64,000 nt of DNA from an uncultured Rickettsiales bacterium (GCA_964469525.1 CAYXYU010000001.1:68508-132507); one strand, 5' to 3'; shown: positions 20,792-51,551, numbered from the stretch's first letter. The notes: generated by a model not told the origin, from the sequence alone. Program-made: numbers and translations.

Positions 20792-20812
20792 GATTCCTCC
20801 TCTCTTTTAACC

Positions 20813-20927
20813 GTCATTCCCGCGCAGGCGGGAATCCATATTCCAGAGTCGGAAATAAGTACGGGGAAAAGCTCATACAGAGCATTTCCTTTAGTGGTTA
20901 TGGATGCCCGTCTGCGCGGGCATGACG
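20813..20927. repeat. MITE-like pair of inverted GTCATTCCCGC..GCGGGAATCC hairpins
   Basis: gtcattcccgcgcaggcgggaatcc (20813-20837) and ggatgcccgtctgcgcgggcatgacg (20902-20927) are in inverted orientation about 64 bp apart, in the pheT-pheS gap. Confidence 0.6.
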
Positions 20928-23045: not shown

Positions 23046-23065
23046 TTTGTTCTCCTTAAATAAAT

Positions 23066-23090
23066 GGATTCCCGCCTCGCGGGAATGACA
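23066..23090. repeat. single hairpin of the GGATTCCCGC..GCGGGAATGAC family
   Basis: ggattcccgcctcgcgggaatgaca, immediately upstream of rpmI. Confidence 0.6.
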
Positions 23091-23206
23091 ATGAACCTGA
23101 CCGTACAAGGCAATGCCTCGCCCGACGATGAGGGAGAGCCTTCTTAACCGCAATCGGGCGCGATTTCAAGTGAAAAACCGCAGGTTGCACCGGATGCCGT
23201 TTAGGC

Positions 23207-33750: not shown

Positions 33751-33878
33751 GTCATCCTGAGTCCCCGCCTGCGTGGGGATAAACTCCGCGAAGCGGAGTC
33801 AAAGGATATTTTCTGCTTGCTCGGAGAACAGATCCTTCGACTCCGTTCGGACTGCGTCCTCACTTTGCTCAGGATGAC
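33751..33878. repeat. 128-bp MITE-like element with 11-bp perfect terminal inverted repeats
   Basis: gtcatcctgag (33751-33761) and ctcaggatgac (33868-33878). Internal hairpins tccccgcctgcgtgggga and actccgcgaagcggagt. Starts 6 nt after the ahcY stop. Confidence 0.6.
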
Positions 33879-36818: not shown

Positions 36819-37562
36819 TTACATGGAGCGGAAGATATTATAAAAGCCGGCGACCGTGCCAGCCAACCCCGCTACCAAAGCTCCGCCACCGATTACACCT
36901 TTGATTACGCGCTCGGTAGTAGGGATAGGCTCGAAGGCAAAGGTAACGGACTTATTCCCATCTTTATTACTATCCGTTTCAACCTGTCGTTCTTTAAGGC
37001 CGGTCATCGACACCGACAACATCTTCCCCCCCATGTCTATCAGCGCGCCGCCGACTACCATTTCCGCTACCGCAATACCGAATCCGGCGCCGGGATGTTT
37101 CTGGTCAACGGAGTGCAGCGTGTTCTGATGCCATTCAACCCCTTTGCCTATGGTGCGGGTGATGAGTCCTGCCTCCTTCTCGGCGGCTTCTACTATGTTG
37201 GTGTGACCTTGAGGCAATATTCTGGAAGCTCTGGCACCGTTGCGAATCGTATTAAGATGCTCAGTGGCTTTTATCACTTCCTGAGTTAGCAGATTCTGTG
37301 CGGTATCTATTCCTTCGGACCCAAATCCAATTTTTTGTAGCTGCTCGAAATAAGCCTGAGCTTTCCTATAAGCTTCTCGTTGTTTTTCGCCGCTTTCATT
37401 ATGGAGATCATATAATACATCCAACCAGGATTTTTGAGCATGGGCTGCTTCCCGCAATGCTTTATTATTCTCGGTGTCAGCCACCTTTATCATCTTCCGA
37501 AAGACGCTTCTTCCGGTTTTCAAGAGAGTATTAATATTTTCTTGAATGGGTTCTGAACGCAT
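36819..37562 (-). CDS. hypothetical protein with Gly-rich hydrophobic segments (orphan, lower GC)
   Basis: 247-aa ORF. Its stop directly abuts the convergent purU stop. No recognisable family. Confidence 0.45.
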   Translation of the reverse strand: MRSEPIQENINTLLKTGRSVFRKMIKVADTENNKALREAAHAQKSWLDVLYDLHNESGEKQREAYRKAQAYFEQLQKIGFGSEGIDTAQNLLTQEVIKATEHLNTIRNGARASRILPQGHTNIVEAAEKEAGLITRTIGKGVEWHQNTLHSVDQKHPGAGFGIAVAEMVVGGALIDMGGKMLSVSMTGLKERQVETDSNKDGNKSVTFAFEPIPTTERVIKGVIGGGALVAGLAGTVAGFYNIFRSM

Positions 37563-37672
37563 GGATTTCTACTCAGTATTGTCGATTTTCCAGCTTACCA
37601 CGATGGTAATAGTGATGGTGTTACAAAATGATGACATTTCTCCCGCTCGGGAGATTTATATAACTATATAAA

Positions 37673-38316
37673 TTATATGGATATTCTTAGTTTCCCAATC
37701 TCGTGGCGGGGTGTTTCGACCCATCCGCCGGGGCGGGCTGGGATGATGGTTTCGGTCTGGATCTGTTCCTGGTAAAAGGCACGGATGTCCTTCATGTCCG
37801 TGTCATCGAGAAGGATCCAGGCATTGCGCAGGGCCAGCTTTCTGGCATTGCCGGTATCGGTGCGGCAGGTGTCCGTACGGTGGTCGCCATCGATATGAAA
37901 CAGGCCAAAACGCACATTCTGCTCCCTCAGCTGCGGCAGGACCAGCCGGGAATCGCCTTCGTAGAAATAAAAACGGTCTTTAAATGCATGCTGAAGGTAA
38001 TTCGCCACCGGGCGCGTATAGGAATGCATGCAGATATCGACACTATGCAGCTCGACGCCGTGCGCCAGCGCCAGCAGCGCCGAGTGTCCGCCATTCAGCC
38101 CGATTTCCAGCATCCGGTGACTGACACGGCAGGCGGCGGCCAGGTTGCCGCGTTTGGGTGAATTAGTGAGATTTTCCGCGACGGAACCGGTTCATGATGG
38201 TGGTAAAAAATATTGCCTTCCAGCGCATGGCCGGAATTTATGACGATGCGGTTGAGTTCATCCAGGTGCGGCAGGTAAGCTCGGGCAAATGACTGTGCGG
38301 AATCTGCACGTGGCGC
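37673..38316 (-). pseudogene. class I SAM-dependent methyltransferase remnant (5'-truncated and frameshifted; 37673..38113 remains an intact ORF)
   Basis: ORF 37673..38113 begins right at motif I (MLEIGLNGGHS). Upstream, a different frame reads ...FARAYLPHLDELNRIVINSGHALEGNIFYHHHEPVPS with no start codon, running from the lon stop. Confidence 0.5.
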
Positions 38317-40722
<2,406 letters not shown>

Positions 40723-40934
40723 GGCAATCGCTTTTTCTTTCGGTTAAAATGTGTCTGGGCTTACCAGCAGGATACCGTCTAATATAGGGGAAGTATTTCC
40801 CCATTACCAGTGACAAGTGGCTGCAGATTTATAAGCGATTGATATTGGAAATAATAAAAAACGTATAAATGCTTTAGCGGATTTCGCTGCACTGGATGAT
40901 ATCCGGGCAACTCGGCAAGCCGTAGCTTTCGAGC

Positions 40935-40993
40935 TGGTGCGGATGGAGGGACTTGAACCCCCACGCCTTGCGGCGCCAGGACCTAAACTGGCA
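40935..40993 (-). pseudogene. 3' remnant of a tRNA-Leu gene (anticodon arm to CCA)
   Basis: Reverse complement is TGCCAGTTTAGGTCCTGGCGCCGCAAGGCGTGGGGGTTCAAGTCCCTCCATCCGCACCA. T-arm, variable arm and acceptor 3' strand are intact. The anticodon arm lacks 1 nt, and no D-arm or 5' acceptor strand is adjacent. Confidence 0.6.
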
Positions 40994-41026
40994 GATTTCG
41001 TTGGCGAGGTACGAGCTTAAGAAATC
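40994..41026. repeat. hairpin terminus L of the tRNA-Leu cassette
   Basis: gatttc-gttggcgaggtacgagcttaa-gaaatc. About 75% identical by eye to the reverse complement of 41183-41218. Confidence 0.5.
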
Positions 41027-41061
41027 GCCACCCCGGCGCAGGCCGGGGCCCATGTTTTTTA

Positions 41062-41146
41062 TGGTGCGGTCGAGAGGACTTGAACCTCCACGGGTTACCC
41101 CGCCAGAACCTAAATCTGGTGCGTCTGCCAATTCCGCCACGACCGC
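41062..41146 (-). tRNA. tRNA-Leu (anticodon TAG), intact
   Basis: GCGGTCG-TG-GCGGAATTGGCAGACGC-A-CCAGA-TTTAGGT-TCTGG-CGGGGTAACCCGT-GGAGG-TTCAAGT-CCTCT-CGACCGC-ACCA. 85 nt, long variable arm. Confidence 0.9.
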
Positions 41147-41156
41147 AAGAAGAAGT

Positions 41157-41182
41157 GGATCCCCGCCTTCGCGGGGACGACA
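41157..41182. repeat. hairpin of the GGATCCCCGC..GCGGGGACGAC family
   Basis: ggatccccgccttcgcggggacgaca, inside the cassette upstream of tRNA-Leu(TAG). Confidence 0.55.
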
Positions 41183-41218
41183 GCTTTCCTAAGCTCGCAT
41201 ACGCTCACTAATGAAAGC
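41183..41218. repeat. hairpin terminus R of the tRNA-Leu cassette
   Basis: gctttc-ctaagctcgcatacgctcactaat-gaaagc. Inverted relative to 40994-41026. Confidence 0.5.
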
Positions 41219-41220
41219 TA

Positions 41221-41240
41221 GTCGATTCCGCCACATCCGC
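41221..41240 (-). pseudogene. 5' remnant of a tRNA-Leu gene (acceptor 5' strand + start of D-arm)
   Basis: Reverse complement is GCGGATGTGGCGGAATCGAC. GCGGATG is the exact complement of the CATCCGC acceptor 3' strand in the remnant at 40935-40993. Confidence 0.55.
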
Positions 41241-41250
41241 GCACCCACGT

Positions 41251-41279
41251 GTCATACCCGGGCCTGGCCCGAGTATCCA
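41251..41279. repeat. variant hairpin of the GTCAT..ATCCA family
   Basis: gtcatacccgggcctggcccgagtatcca. Confidence 0.45.
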
Positions 41280-41298
41280 TTGAAAAAATAGCGCTGGG

Positions 41299-41472
41299 CT
41301 AGAGGTGGTTCTGCGCCGTCTGCTGGAAGCTGGCCTCGCAGCCGGGGTATTTATGGCCGTCCGGGCAGGCGGTGTACTGGTAATAGAAGCTGTCCCAGCC
41401 CGTCGTTTCAGGCACCAGCCCGCAGCCGGAGAGGGGAAGCATCAGTAACAGAATGAAAGACAGCTGTCGCAT
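41299..41472 (-). CDS. small putative lipoprotein (57 aa; below the ORF-track cutoff)
   Basis: My translation is MRQLSFILLLMLPLSGCGLVPETTGWDSFYYQYTACPDGHKYPGCEASFQQTAQNHL. It has a lipobox LSGC after a hydrophobic core and four Cys. Confidence 0.4.
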   Translation of the reverse strand: MRQLSFILLLMLPLSGCGLVPETTGWDSFYYQYTACPDGHKYPGCEASFQQTAQNHL

Positions 41473-47284: not shown

Positions 47285-49309
47285 ATGGCGTATAAATCAG
47301 ACCTTGATCCCAGTCAGAAACAAGCGCTTCACGCTGCATTAGATCAGCAGGAAGAGGCGGCACGGAACGCTAGGCAGACCGGCGAATACCTTAAATTCGC
47401 CATGATCGGCCAGGAAGAGTTAGTGGAACAGCGGGGTGAGGATGGAACCCTGCAGAAATCCATCGCTGATTTTGATCGGGATGGTGCAGAACGGGCAAAA
47501 GACCTCGCTGTTATGGAGGTGGCGCAGCTGCAGGAGCGGATAGGCGATAAAGAAAACGGTTGGCTGGATAAAGAGCAGGCGCTTGCCGAAGCCCTGCTGA
47601 AACGGGTTCGGGATGCACAAGGCAGTGCGGCAGATAGCCTGGGTGGTGGTGAGGCGGGTTACGCCGAAGCGGTTCAGAGCGCAGAACAGGCGGTCGAGAA
47701 CATCACGGTTGCCAAGACAGCTTTCGAGGCAGCCCGCGCAGAACATGAGGCGCAGGTAACACAGGCTCTGGAAGCATTTAAGCAGCAGGAAGATGCTGCC
47801 AAAGTTACCGGTCTGACGGGCGATGAGCTTGCAAAATTCCTAGAGTCGGCGACGCAAGCCCGCGATGCGGCAATGAACAGCAGTCATCAGGTGTATCGCG
47901 ATACCCTTGCCGGAACGGTTGGCAGCCTGCTGGAGACGGCGGAGACGCGTCACCTGGCGTTGGCGCAGTTCGAACTTGCCGAGGCTGAACGCAATCCCGA
48001 TAGTAAGGCCTCTGACATTGATCATGCGCGGGTCAGGGTTGCCATGCACCAGCGGCTGGCCAATACGGAAGAGTCCGTCACGGAACAGTTACAGGCTGCC
48101 GGCGGCTATCTGGAAGAAGTAGAAAAAGGCAAACAAGCCCGCCTGATGCAGCGGACCGATGATCTTGCACTCTTTGTCGATCATCTGAAGATTTCCGTCA
48201 TTGACGAGCACTATGACACTAAAATCAGGGATGCTGAATCCAGGTTCGCCGACGAGGAAGTAACAAACCTGAAACTGGAACAGGAAAAGCTCGGCGACAA
48301 GCTGGGAAAAATCGGTGAAAGACTGGGCGATCAGCTCCGGGAAACCCTTGCCCAGGTTGAGAAGGACGATTCCCGTACGGAAGCTGAAAAACAGGAAATC
48401 CGGATAGCCGCCCTGCGGGATGCCACCAGCTACGAAGGCAGATCCCCCGATCGTTTCATGAGCGATTTCCTGGCAAGCCATGCGCCAGAGATGGCCCCGG
48501 TTAGTATCAAAGAGCGCGCGCAGGCTGCGGGCATCAATGCACGGGACATTGCCACGCTGAAATTGACTGAGGAGGGATTGATCGCGCAGCTCAAAGGCGA
48601 TGGCGCCCGGGAAGTGCATCTGGCCAGTAACGAGGAAGCGCTGGATAAGGGGATCGACGTCGAAGGCATGGGCAAAAACGTTCGTATCCTGGTTGACAAG
48701 CATGCTGGCGTGGACGCAGAAACACAGCTAGTCGTACACAATACCGAAAAGCATAATATGTATGTTGGCGGAACAAATGGAGGTAAATCACCTTCCGCCC
48801 GCGATATGGTGGAGATTGCGCAGGCCGTAGGCAATGTGCGCTCCGCCGCAGGCGGGGATCTCAATCTTGATGATCAGGCGCAGATGACGGCCATGCAGCT
48901 GGATAAGAGTGCGCTGATGAAAGAGCATTGGAATAATTTATCTTCCAAGCAGAGGATGGAAATTTTGCAGAAAACTAGGGGCGGCAAGGGGAATTATTAT
49001 GCCCAGATGGATGTCACTCAACTGGCGCAGGAAGTCCGCATGATGCGTGCCCTGGAGACCAACGAGACTATTGAGCGGGAAGCGGGCATCGCTGCTGCGG
49101 AGCAAGCTGGGAAGGATAGGCTGGCCCAACTTTATCCGGGTAAGTCGGAAAAAGACATTGCCGATATTTATGCCCAGCTGCAGGGCATCAATAGCGGCCA
49201 GGTCTATGGCGGTATGGATCCCAACGAGGTGCTGGTGCGTAACCTCGGGGGGCCCAAGCAGGTGGGGGGTGCCTCTCCCGAACAAGCCGGGCGGGGCCGG
49301 ACAAGCTAG
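47285..49309 (+). CDS. large hypothetical protein, E/A/Q-rich helical or coiled-coil (orphan)
   Basis: 674-aa uninterrupted ORF with no signal peptide, TM segment or recognisable domain. Lies between tRNA-Asp and nuoA. Confidence 0.5.
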   Translation: MAYKSDLDPSQKQALHAALDQQEEAARNARQTGEYLKFAMIGQEELVEQRGEDGTLQKSIADFDRDGAERAKDLAVMEVAQLQERIGDKENGWLDKEQALAEALLKRVRDAQGSAADSLGGGEAGYAEAVQSAEQAVENITVAKTAFEAARAEHEAQVTQALEAFKQQEDAAKVTGLTGDELAKFLESATQARDAAMNSSHQVYRDTLAGTVGSLLETAETRHLALAQFELAEAERNPDSKASDIDHARVRVAMHQRLANTEESVTEQLQAAGGYLEEVEKGKQARLMQRTDDLALFVDHLKISVIDEHYDTKIRDAESRFADEEVTNLKLEQEKLGDKLGKIGERLGDQLRETLAQVEKDDSRTEAEKQEIRIAALRDATSYEGRSPDRFMSDFLASHAPEMAPVSIKERAQAAGINARDIATLKLTEEGLIAQLKGDGAREVHLASNEEALDKGIDVEGMGKNVRILVDKHAGVDAETQLVVHNTEKHNMYVGGTNGGKSPSARDMVEIAQAVGNVRSAAGGDLNLDDQAQMTAMQLDKSALMKEHWNNLSSKQRMEILQKTRGGKGNYYAQMDVTQLAQEVRMMRALETNETIEREAGIAAAEQAGKDRLAQLYPGKSEKDIADIYAQLQGINSGQVYGGMDPNEVLVRNLGGPKQVGGASPEQAGRGRTS

Positions 49310-50328: not shown

Positions 50329-50940
50329 ATGGATATTGCCTTCACTAACCTCACTGGAACGATTGAGCGGCAGATGCCGGGGGCGCTGCGCGGCTCGGAG
50401 ATCATCCATGGCGAGTGGACGCTGACGGCCAACCTGTTCCAGATCATCCCGCTGATGACTTTTCTGCGCGACGATTCGAACTGCCTGTTCACGCAGCTGA
50501 CCGATATTGCCGGCGTCGATTTCCCCGAGCGCGAGCAGCGCTTCGATGTGGTGTATCACCTGCTCAGCATGCAGCATAACCGGCGTGTGCGCGTGAAGCT
50601 GGCGGTCGATGACAAAACGCCGGTGCCGTCGCTGACTGGCTTATATCCCAATGCCGGGTGGTACGAGCGCGAGGTGTGGGATATGTACGGTGTGCTATTC
50701 TCCGGCCATCCCGATTTGCGCCGCATCCTGACCGATTACGGCTTCGACGGTCATCCCCAGCGCCGCGATTTCCCGCTGACCGGCTATGTCGAGATGCGTT
50801 ATGACGAGGAGCAGAAGCGCGTGGTGTATGAGCCGGTGAAGCTCAACCAGGCCTACCGGAGCTTCGATTTCCTGAGCCCGTGGGAAGGCGCGCCGGATTA
50901 TGTGCTGCCGGGGGATGAGAAGGCGACTAGCAATGGTTAG
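50329..50940 (+). CDS. nuoC: NADH-quinone oxidoreductase subunit C
   Basis: 203 aa. [24 protein letters not shown] 30-kDa subunit signature. Confidence 0.9.
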
Positions 50941-50965
50941 CGAGCATGGCGAGCTTAGCATTGCT

Positions 50966-51029
50966 GTCGTCCCCGCGCAGGCGGGGACCTTGTGCCACAA
51001 GCTGGATTCCCGCTTTCGCGGGAATGACA
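50966..51029. repeat. inverted pair of GTCGTCCCCGC../..GCGGGAATGAC hairpins
   Basis: gtcgtccccgcgcaggcggggacc (50966-50989) and ggattcccgctttcgcgggaatgaca (51004-51029), between nuoC and the GNAT gene. Confidence 0.6.
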
Positions 51030-51041
51030 AGGATGGGCGTA

Positions 51042-51551
51042 ATGGCTAGGAAAAAAATTGATTTTACGATCCGTGATGCGCATCTGGAGGATTTTGAGGA
51101 AATCTACGACATCTTCCGCCATGTACTGGAAGAGGGAAAAACCTATTCCTACACGCTCGAGGAGATGACGCCGGAGCGCTCGCTGGCCTACTGGATGAGT
51201 GCGCCGGGTACGCATTGCTTCGTCGCCGACGTCAAGGGCAAGGTGGCGGGGGTCGGCACCGTGCGTCCCAACCGCACCGGCCGGGCGGGACATGTCGCCA
51301 ACGCCTCGTTCATGGTGCATCCGCACTTTCGCCGCATGGGCATCGCCAAGGCGCTGGGCAAGAAGGCGCTCGCCCACGCCAAAAAGGAAGGCTACAAGGC
51401 GATGCAGTTCAATTTCGTGGTGAGCGCCAACCAGACGGCGGTGGAATTATGGATGGATCTCGGCTTCAAGGTGGTGGGCACGCTGCCCAAAGGCTTCAAG
51501 CACGCCAGCAAGGGCAAGGTGGATGTGTATATCATGCATAGGTTTTTATGA
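51042..51551 (+). CDS. GNAT family N-acetyltransferase embedded in the nuo operon
   Basis: ATG at 51042 ([20 protein letters not shown]...). Motif [19 protein letters not shown]. Stop overlaps the nuoD start (ATGA at 51548). The tracked start 50946 runs through the hairpin repeats. Confidence 0.75.

Follow-up and report, generated by a model that had tools for sequence, protein, structure and literature searches.

Palindromic repeats of the repetitive extragenic palindrome (REP) type are abundant in bacteria. REPIN-like doublets of such repeats are mobilised by a REP-associated tyrosine transposase (RAYT). To our knowledge, neither an enzyme nor recent movement has been documented for REPs of the CGTC class. 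Phages and genomic islands that enter tRNA genes bring along a copy of the tRNA 3' part, by which the gene is restored. CGTC-tagged REPs predominate in Alphaproteobacteria and form inverted doublets with spacers of 20-100 bp (Di Nocera et al. 2013, PMC3733652). They are described as having a terminal CGTC (or TGTC/CCTC) tag, a stem of 8-9 bp, a loop of 4-5 nt and a short CCA-type tail; copies within genes and DNA inserted between doublet partners have been described too (PMC3733652). In Caldiarchaeum subterraneum, a tRNA gene was broken by a mobile element, and the break is polymorphic in the population (Sugahara et al. 2012, PMC3293823). Here we describe a tRNA-Leu(UAG) gene interrupted by a repeat-bounded cassette that carries another tRNA-Leu(UAG). 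It lies at positions 40935-41240 of a 64,000-nt stretch from an uncultured Rickettsiales bacterium (GCA_964469525.1 CAYXYU010000001.1:68508-132507), below called the window; coordinates are counted from its first letter. The structure is a real, recent and polymorphic insertion that replaced the host gene. It is quite likely that the resident tRNA-Leu(UAG) gene was hit by a non-autonomous REP-doublet unit of 237 bp, whose different tRNA-Leu(UAG) took its place.

The further sequences used for comparison are labelled L003-L211; those from L206 to L210 are contigs of public read-set (Logan) assemblies.

Structure of the interrupted locus

On the minus strand, from 41240 to 40935, the locus consists of the 16-nt 5' end of the native tRNA-Leu(UAG) gene (A5', 41225-41240, GCGGATGTGGCGGAAT), a 237-nt insert (40988-41224) and the 53-nt native 3' end (A3', 40935-40987, TTTAGGTCCTGG...CATCCGCACCA). 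The insert contains, in this order, the left arm F1, a spacer, an intact tRNA gene (tRNA B), a second spacer and the inverted right arm F2. F1 (41156-41224, minus strand) starts with a 47-nt hairpin, CGACTAGCTTTC...GAAAGCTGTCG (41224-41178), which is followed by the CGTC-tagged REP CCCCGC-GAAG-GCGGGG (41176-41161) with the tail ATCCA. A 9-nt spacer separates the GC hairpin from the 85-nt tRNA B (41062-41146, minus strand). Then follow an 8-nt A-rich spacer, the GC hairpin GCCCCGGC-CTGC-GCCGGGG and the second large hairpin. Read on the plus strand, F2 (40988-41054) has the same order as F1: a hairpin (40988-41030), the REP CCCCGGC-GCAG-GCCGGGG (41031-41049) and the tail CCCAT. A run of T comes next, and F2 is terminator-like on this strand.

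The earlier note, made from the window sequence, had listed the pieces of this locus, and all of them were found; the flanking hairpins and both GC hairpins fold as it described. Two details needed correction. The cassette, given there as about 225 bp, is 237 nt long (41224-40988) and replaces 16 nt of the tRNA. The CCAG, earlier assigned to an anticodon-stem strand carrying a 1-nt defect, belongs instead to the right repeat and forms its terminus (plus strand, CTGGCAG); the 3' fragment thus starts with TTTAGG (40987).

Filled and empty alleles

Allelic contigs were retrieved by exact protein match to a small open reading frame (ORF) beside the locus, which encodes a 57-aa lipoprotein with the lipobox LSGC (41299-41472, minus strand). 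Five contigs were obtained. Four of them (L206, L207, L208, L209), each from a run of its own, have the structure of the window (filled allele; SRR27710303, SRR27710304, SRR27710306 and SRR31189351), with 0 differences over 437-931 compared bases; the identity covers each contig's own reach, L208 stopping within tRNA B. A look-up with the neighbouring 241-aa ORF gave the same four contigs.

The fifth contig, L210, represents the empty allele of a sister strain (SRR32939172). Its flanks are those of the window (98.0% identity upstream, 99.5% between the tRNA and lon), and they enclose one uninterrupted tRNA-Leu(UAG) gene of 85 nt. Positions 1-16 and 32-85 of this gene are identical to the window fragments (16/16 and 53/53), and its TGGCAGACGCACCAGG (16 nt, positions 17-31) corresponds to the 237 nt at 41224-40988 of the window. 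The structure therefore goes back to an insertion into a gene that was intact, at the cost of 16 bp of the target. This directly shows what had been proposed from the sequence, namely that an older tRNA-Leu(TAG) gene was broken in its D region by a cassette bringing a replacement tRNA-Leu(TAG). Comparison of the two alleles reveals no target-site duplication, whereas a miniature inverted-repeat transposable element (MITE) would be expected to have one. One base is ambiguous at the right (F2-end) junction, and microhomology there is at most 1 nt. The alleles do not differ in the 58 nt (41241-41298) that precede the native 5' end and presumably hold the promoter. The insertion is recent, since neither native fragment has changed after the event.

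Taken together, the empty allele and the identical junctions of the filled contigs exclude an artefact of assembly, a tandem array that decayed, a scar left by an integrase and a lon/tig rearrangement. In particular, a scheme in which a tandem array of three tRNA genes suffered two deletions was discarded on the basis of the empty allele.

The intergenic DNA from the tRNA to lon is 99.5-100% identical in L210 and the window, yet the first 720 nt of lon are 93.5% identical and contain a 6-nt indel. This contrast suggests a mosaic history of the locus, with recombination around it.

The native tRNA-Leu(UAG) gene

The 5' fragment matches tRNA-Leu 5' ends at 15-16 of 16 positions (16/16 in L210; 15/16 in L076, L079 and L082). 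The 3' fragment (40987-40935) is 91-98% identical to the 3' part of the tRNA-Leu(UAG) genes of relatives (53/53 in L210, 96% in L082, 98% in L012); it spans tRNA positions 32-76, from the anticodon loop and the 3' side of its stem through the variable and T arms to the 3' side of the acceptor stem and CCA. The outer acceptor strands GCGGATG/CATCCGC are complementary to each other and do not pair with the inner ones, GCGGTCG/CGACCGC, as the note had stated. Relatives whose Lon is 85-90% identical have one tRNA-Leu(UAG) gene at this locus, and it is of the outer type; the outer fragments are therefore the native gene. Thus, alignment with orthologous regions identifies these fragments as the native tRNA gene, and not as sequences unrelated to tRNA.

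Joined as found, the outer fragments are not recognised as a tRNA by ARAGORN. With the missing nucleotides restored, they give a canonical 85-nt tRNA-Leu(tag) fold, and this reconstruction is identical to the intact gene of L210. The lost part includes a portion of the D loop with G18/G19, the 3' strand of the D stem and the 5' strand of the anticodon stem. Since 16 nt of its body are gone and no tRNA is recognised, the native gene is dead.

The cargo tRNA

ARAGORN finds a single tRNA-Leu(tag) at 41062-41146 on the minus strand, and the Rfam tRNA model (RF00005) scores 53.9 bits there. This is the only tRNA that either program calls in the region, also when introns are allowed. The earlier reading of 41146-41062 as a complete 85-nt tRNA-Leu(TAG) thus agrees with both programs, and the 306 nt were not called as one intron-containing tRNA. 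tRNA B has the discriminator A73, GG in the D loop and a long variable arm, the features needed for recognition by bacterial leucyl-tRNA synthetase. Essential genes use CUA codons, which occur in lon, tig, clpX and nuoC. As far as can be judged from the sequence, no Leu(UAG) gene at the locus other than tRNA B looks functional.

By manual count, tRNA B and the native gene share 82% identity; where they differ in the acceptor stem, the variable arm or the T stem, both strands have changed so that pairing is kept. tRNA B is therefore no recent duplicate of the native gene. An exact 25-mer covering its T arm and acceptor occurs in more than 120 metagenome loci, all of them tRNA-Leu(GAG) or tRNA-Leu(CAG); none of these loci has the UAG anticodon, and no arm-like sequences were found in their flanks. 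The acceptor stem, D arm and T arm of tRNA B are those of tRNA-Leu(GAG)/(CAG) from many metagenome bacteria (loci L083-L202). Its anticodon and variable arms resemble the tRNA-Leu(UAG) of the alphaproteobacterial metagenome-assembled genome (MAG) L015. tRNA B could be foreign, or it could be a remodelled or recombinant paralogous isoacceptor.

The arms and their repeat family

The left flank of tRNA B and the reverse complement of its right flank align over about 59 columns with a score of 33 (shuffled sequences, 13 +/- 2.3; z about 8.6). In direct orientation the arms score 12, which is at the background level. They belong to a dispersed repeat family of about 70 nt that has three full copies in the 64 kb (nhmmer scores of 69, 63 and 53 bits; covariance-model scores of 90, 90 and 75 bits). 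The copies are F1 (nhmmer E 1.5e-20; covariance model R1, 90.1 bits; DNA fold z -3.9), F2 (E 1.6e-15; R1, 75 bits) and a third one, F3, at the nuoC stop codon (50924-50992, plus strand; E 1.3e-18; R1, 89.9 bits). F1 and F3 are 77% identical, F1 and F2 65%, and identities of the arms to each other and to F3 range from 64 to 77%.

Each full copy consists of a large hairpin followed by a GC palindrome. The large hairpin has a conserved loop (TTAGYGAGC...GCGAGCTTAG), and its inner stem is variable yet complementary: 6 of the 23 predicted pairs differ on both sides among the three copies. The GC palindromes have the tag, stem, loop and tail of the REP superfamily, being GTCGTC-CCCGC-GAAG-GCGGGG-ATCCA in the left arm and, with a variant tag, CGCC-ACCCCGGC-GCAG-GCCGGGG-CCCAT in the right arm (cf. 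the description in PMC3733652). The two arms form a REP doublet, as they are inverted and pair into one long hairpin in the RNA fold; the spacer here is 102 nt. Doublets of the same geometry, with tags outward and tails inward, occur in the window at 20811-20925 (60-nt spacer, strand not assigned) and at 50971-51030 (16-nt spacer). The inner tRNA thus occupies the spacer of a REP doublet whose geometry is ordinary.

At least eight matches to the REP module were found in the window, and many also in L023, L006, L003, L013 and L024. Copies of the REP alone are scattered over the window and related genomes, most densely in L023, and full two-hairpin relatives lie between clpP and clpX in L006 (12238-12370) and L003 (2510-2579), which represent two other genera. 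The L006 copy is itself a doublet with an inverted REP; the window has 73 nt between clpP and clpX. Other CGTC-type REP copies in the window are intergenic: the doublet at 20811-20925 and the copies at 33759-33781, 23064-23091 and 48839-48861.

The outer 5' arm of the F3 hairpin, CGACTAGCAATG, overlaps the end of nuoC and encodes the conserved C-terminus ATSNG. An inverted CGTC REP lies downstream of F3 (51004-51030). In L211 (2040-2070), nuoC overlaps the next gene (AATGGCTAA), and there are about 100 nt fewer than in the window, where the 9-nt repeat AATGGYTAG brackets the extra DNA (50924-51050). As the 3' arm of F3 is complementary to coding sequence adjacent to the insertion, there is a hint that the variable stems may copy target-adjacent sequence.

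The earlier note had spoken of a MITE-sized element with inverted hairpin termini and suggested a search for further copies of these 33-36-nt termini. Such copies were found, the termini being members of the dispersed REP-type family. The small size and the inverted termini hold; a classical MITE does not fit, given the absent target-site duplication and the membership of the termini in a REP family. The idea of termini unique to a new MITE came from a search with a 13-nt core, which matched the two arms alone; profile and covariance searches then gave the third full copy and many partial ones. Two further candidates were not retained. The arms might have come from the downstream flank of the native tRNA, as the left arm resembles the L082 flank (z 4.7-5.5); the right arm and F3 do not. 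A fourth repeat remnant between A3' and the lon promoter was seen by eye and is not significant. The DNA around the fragments shows weak similarity to that of relatives (z up to about 3).

Genomic context

The window is alphaproteobacterial, with about 57% G+C; the genomes closest to it are MAGs that carry the labels Pseudomonadota, Rickettsiales or Alphaproteobacteria. Genes around the locus are arranged as lon (minus), the tRNA region (minus), the 57-aa lipoprotein ORF (minus), a 245-aa ORF (plus), tig, clpP, clpX, tRNA-Val and tRNA-Asp. The lon gene, encoding endopeptidase La, occupies 38317-40722 on the minus strand (NCBIfam, 1160 bits), and a promoter-like motif CCACTTGTCACTGG...CCCCTATAT at about 40781-40818 is conserved in an alignment of the promoter block with relatives. 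An exact look-up of the Lon protein gave no record. Two ORFs (36819-38113) separate lon from the formyltransferase gene, one of 247 aa without a family match and one of 146 aa with a Methyltransf_24 domain; in most relatives they are absent and those genes are adjacent.

In distant alphaproteobacteria the order is tRNA-Leu(UAG)-tig-clpP-clpX-lon. In L004, L076, L079 and L082 (Lon 85-90% identical), lon already lies beside tRNA-Leu/tig, and each has one intact outer-type tRNA, which is not on the strand of lon. Since lon is next to an intact tRNA in these relatives as well as in the empty allele, the move of lon is older than the split of the tRNA and is unrelated to it.

In the window species, both alleles have the tRNA-Leu locus inverted relative to L004, L076, L078, L079 and L082, which stand for other genera of the clade, so that the tRNA is on the strand of lon and not on that of tig. 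The DNA between the tRNA and tig is different in every relative. In L080 (1722-1766; also in L081; Lon 90% identical), the 5' half of a tRNA-Leu(UAG), up to the anticodon stem, stands alone beside lon. Farther on come an ORF of 348 aa, an antitoxin gene and a TraI-type relaxase; a tRNA call is absent. The same gene seems to have been disrupted here in another, island-type way.

Origin and consequences of the insertion

The insert begins with C at 41224 and ends at 40988, and both ends are the first column conserved in all three copies of the family (the F2 end within one ambiguous base). Because the ends of the insert are the termini of a repeat family, the unit seems to have moved as an element and not as a random fragment. 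It would have moved as one piece, either by a process that mobilises REP doublets or through capture of an excised copy at a break. When the tRNA gene is considered as single-stranded DNA, both junctions are at loops, one in the D loop and the other at the start of the anticodon loop. This would suit a single-strand, hairpin-recognising enzyme, and end joining around an excised copy fits equally well. A DDE-type transposase is disfavoured, since target-site duplication is absent.

tRNA B would be transcribed from the unchanged native promoter as a part of a chimeric precursor, from which RNase P and 3' processing would release it. In 41241-41298 there is a weak match to -35/-10 boxes, TGGATA and TATGAC spaced by 17 nt, seen by eye and below the threshold of the promoter scan. 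The arms may pair into a long stalk around the tRNA in the transcript. In the predicted fold of a 326-nt RNA, F1 pairs with F2, A5' pairs with A3', and the inner tRNA keeps its cloverleaf (-145.1 kcal/mol, z -4.6). Most transcripts may end at the REP just 3' of the tRNA. The element brought the decoding function that it destroyed, which is probably why the insertion was tolerated. Excision would not restore the old gene, since 16 bp of the target are gone, and the host would depend on the cargo.

Several points weigh against a moving REP-doublet unit. We know of no characterised transposase whose signature is a 16-bp target deletion without duplication, and such a deletion fits break repair as well as transposition. 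The unit is known from a single insertion: exact paired cores of the arms had no match in the JGI metagenomes, a scan of viral contigs with the arms found none, and plasmids and phages gave only tRNA matches and no second copy of the unit. No second copy was found within the 64-kb window either. A 59-aa ORF starts in the element, and no ORF sharing its element-encoded part was found in the protein database, where the search returned only spurious ORFs over ordinary tRNA-Leu genes. The promoter scan of the minus strand gave nothing above the threshold. Another tRNA-Leu(UAG) gene may exist elsewhere in the genome, outside the window. The left boundary of the repeat family is incompletely understood, as the hairpin arm of F3 coincides with the last codons of nuoC. 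Finally, no transposase is known for CGTC REPs (PMC3733652).

Break repair is the alternative that survives best, and we consider it rather unlikely. Here a double-strand break in the tRNA gene would have been resected by 16 bp and closed by end joining around a stray fragment, either foreign or from another part of the genome, in which a tRNA-Leu(UAG) lay between two REP-type repeats. The 16-bp deletion, the lack of duplication and the microhomology of at most 1 nt at the right junction are in its favour, as is the failure to find another copy of the unit in the window, the JGI metagenomes (exact cores), viral contigs, plasmids, phages and the ORF search. However, a random fragment is unlikely to have both ends at the first conserved position of the family; capture of an excised element is still compatible with this.

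A two-step origin is very unlikely. According to it, an empty doublet entered one of two redundant tRNA-Leu(UAG) genes, and a second tRNA later recombined into the spacer between the repeat copies. DNA between the partners of REP dimers is known (PMC3733652), and empty doublets are present in the window, but none of the five assemblies has an allele with a doublet lacking the tRNA. Moreover, the arms and F3, at 64-77% identity, are a poor substrate for homologous recombination, and two rare events would be needed at one 85-bp gene.

It is scarcely credible that the 306 nt form one functional split or intron-containing gene, with the arms uniting the halves so that the outer tRNA is still made. 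The minimum-energy fold does pair the arms and the outer acceptor strands. On the other hand, the 16 nt missing from the body include G18/G19 and the 3' strand of the D stem, no tRNA model calls the whole region even with introns allowed, no group I intron or other Rfam family is found at E up to 10, and the structure is polymorphic against an intact gene.

Equally little credence can be given to a scar, left by integration or loss of an integrase island at a tRNA attachment site or by the lon-tig rearrangement; the latter had been the alternative offered in the earlier note. The locus is indeed a hotspot, as seen from the tRNA half beside the relaxase/antitoxin island of L080 and from the variable tRNA-tig DNA. 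However, the two fragments make up the complementary halves of a single gene, and the tRNA 3' part is not directly repeated. No integrase is encoded in the 237 bp, a simple insertion is what the empty allele shows, and lon has an intact tRNA next to it in the relatives (L004, L076, L079, L082) as well as in the empty allele.

The probability of an assembly artefact is negligible: the source is a MAG, and three Logan contigs end in the cassette or the 3' fragment, but identical junctions occur in four independent assemblies from different runs. The three contigs that stop there are L207, L208 and L209; assembly graphs may branch at the cassette as both alleles or other tRNA-Leu genes co-occur in the samples.

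If a mobile REP-doublet unit is accepted, one may go further and suppose a self-propagating element specialised in tRNA replacement. Its cargo would let a REP doublet enter and irreversibly destroy a single-copy isoacceptor gene, so that the host becomes addicted through gene replacement, and the choice of target would be guided by the hairpin loops of the tRNA gene, namely the D and anticodon loops with the two junctions, or by homology to the cargo. This extension is doubtful. As for isoacceptor targeting, the same picture would result if only those insertions survived that brought a working copy. If the extension were true, the locus would be the first fresh, allele-resolved transposition of CGTC-type REPs.

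The locus indicates that a 237-bp element without mobility genes can carry a tRNA gene and, in a single step, put it in place of the host gene with the same anticodon. Core translation genes can be replaced in this way, horizontally or by a paralogue, and a small element may thereby become indispensable. The locus also supplies the exact ends of the element, the target sequence, the absence of duplication and the 16-bp loss, all of which constrain any proposed mechanism.

Comparison with known systems

Searches of the open-access literature gave no REP doublet or MITE that carries a tRNA, nor one within its isoacceptor gene. Bacterial group I introns of tRNA genes have a ribozyme core, lie in the anticodon loop and leave complete exons, whereas this unit has no ribozyme match, is in the wrong position and its exons are short by 16 nt.

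MITEs and derivatives of IS200/IS605 share with the unit the small size, the absence of an encoded transposase and foldable terminal inverted repeats; we know of none that carries a tRNA gene. MITEs have target-site duplications and many near-identical copies, and the unit differs from them in lacking a duplication. In this respect it is similar to IS200/IS605. However, the ends of IS200/IS605 are alike in direct orientation, and those of the unit only in inverted orientation (33 vs 12).

Like islands that target tRNA genes, the unit preserves the function by its own tRNA sequence, and L080 shows the locus to be an island hotspot. Unlike them, it is 237 bp long, lacks an integrase and does not repeat the 3' part of the tRNA directly; its tRNA is complete and independent, not a matching fragment, and the event is irreversible, the target bases having been deleted.

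In the Caldiarchaeum case, too, a tRNA fragment lies beside a replacement gene of the same anticodon, with an inserted element (PMC3293823). That case differs in being archaeal, in the size of the element (1.8 kb) and its recombinase gene, in the involvement of introns and splicing, and in the retention of a 5' fragment only, which is not nested (PMC3293823).

The closest systems are the CGTC REPs and the GTAG REPIN doublets of Pseudomonas. As in these, the arms have as inner modules short GC palindromes that bear a CGTC/CGCC tag, a loop of 4 nt and a tail of the CCA type; these modules are dispersed over the genome and related alphaproteobacteria, form inverted doublets with a spacer, occur within genes and have no mobility gene of their own. 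Unlike other REP doublets, the unit holds a complete tRNA gene in its spacer, and its REPs are coupled to a larger hairpin with a conserved loop and a variable stem. Its target, moreover, is a tRNA gene of the same anticodon, and the insertion is a fresh one, seen with both alleles and with the loss of 16 bp of the target.

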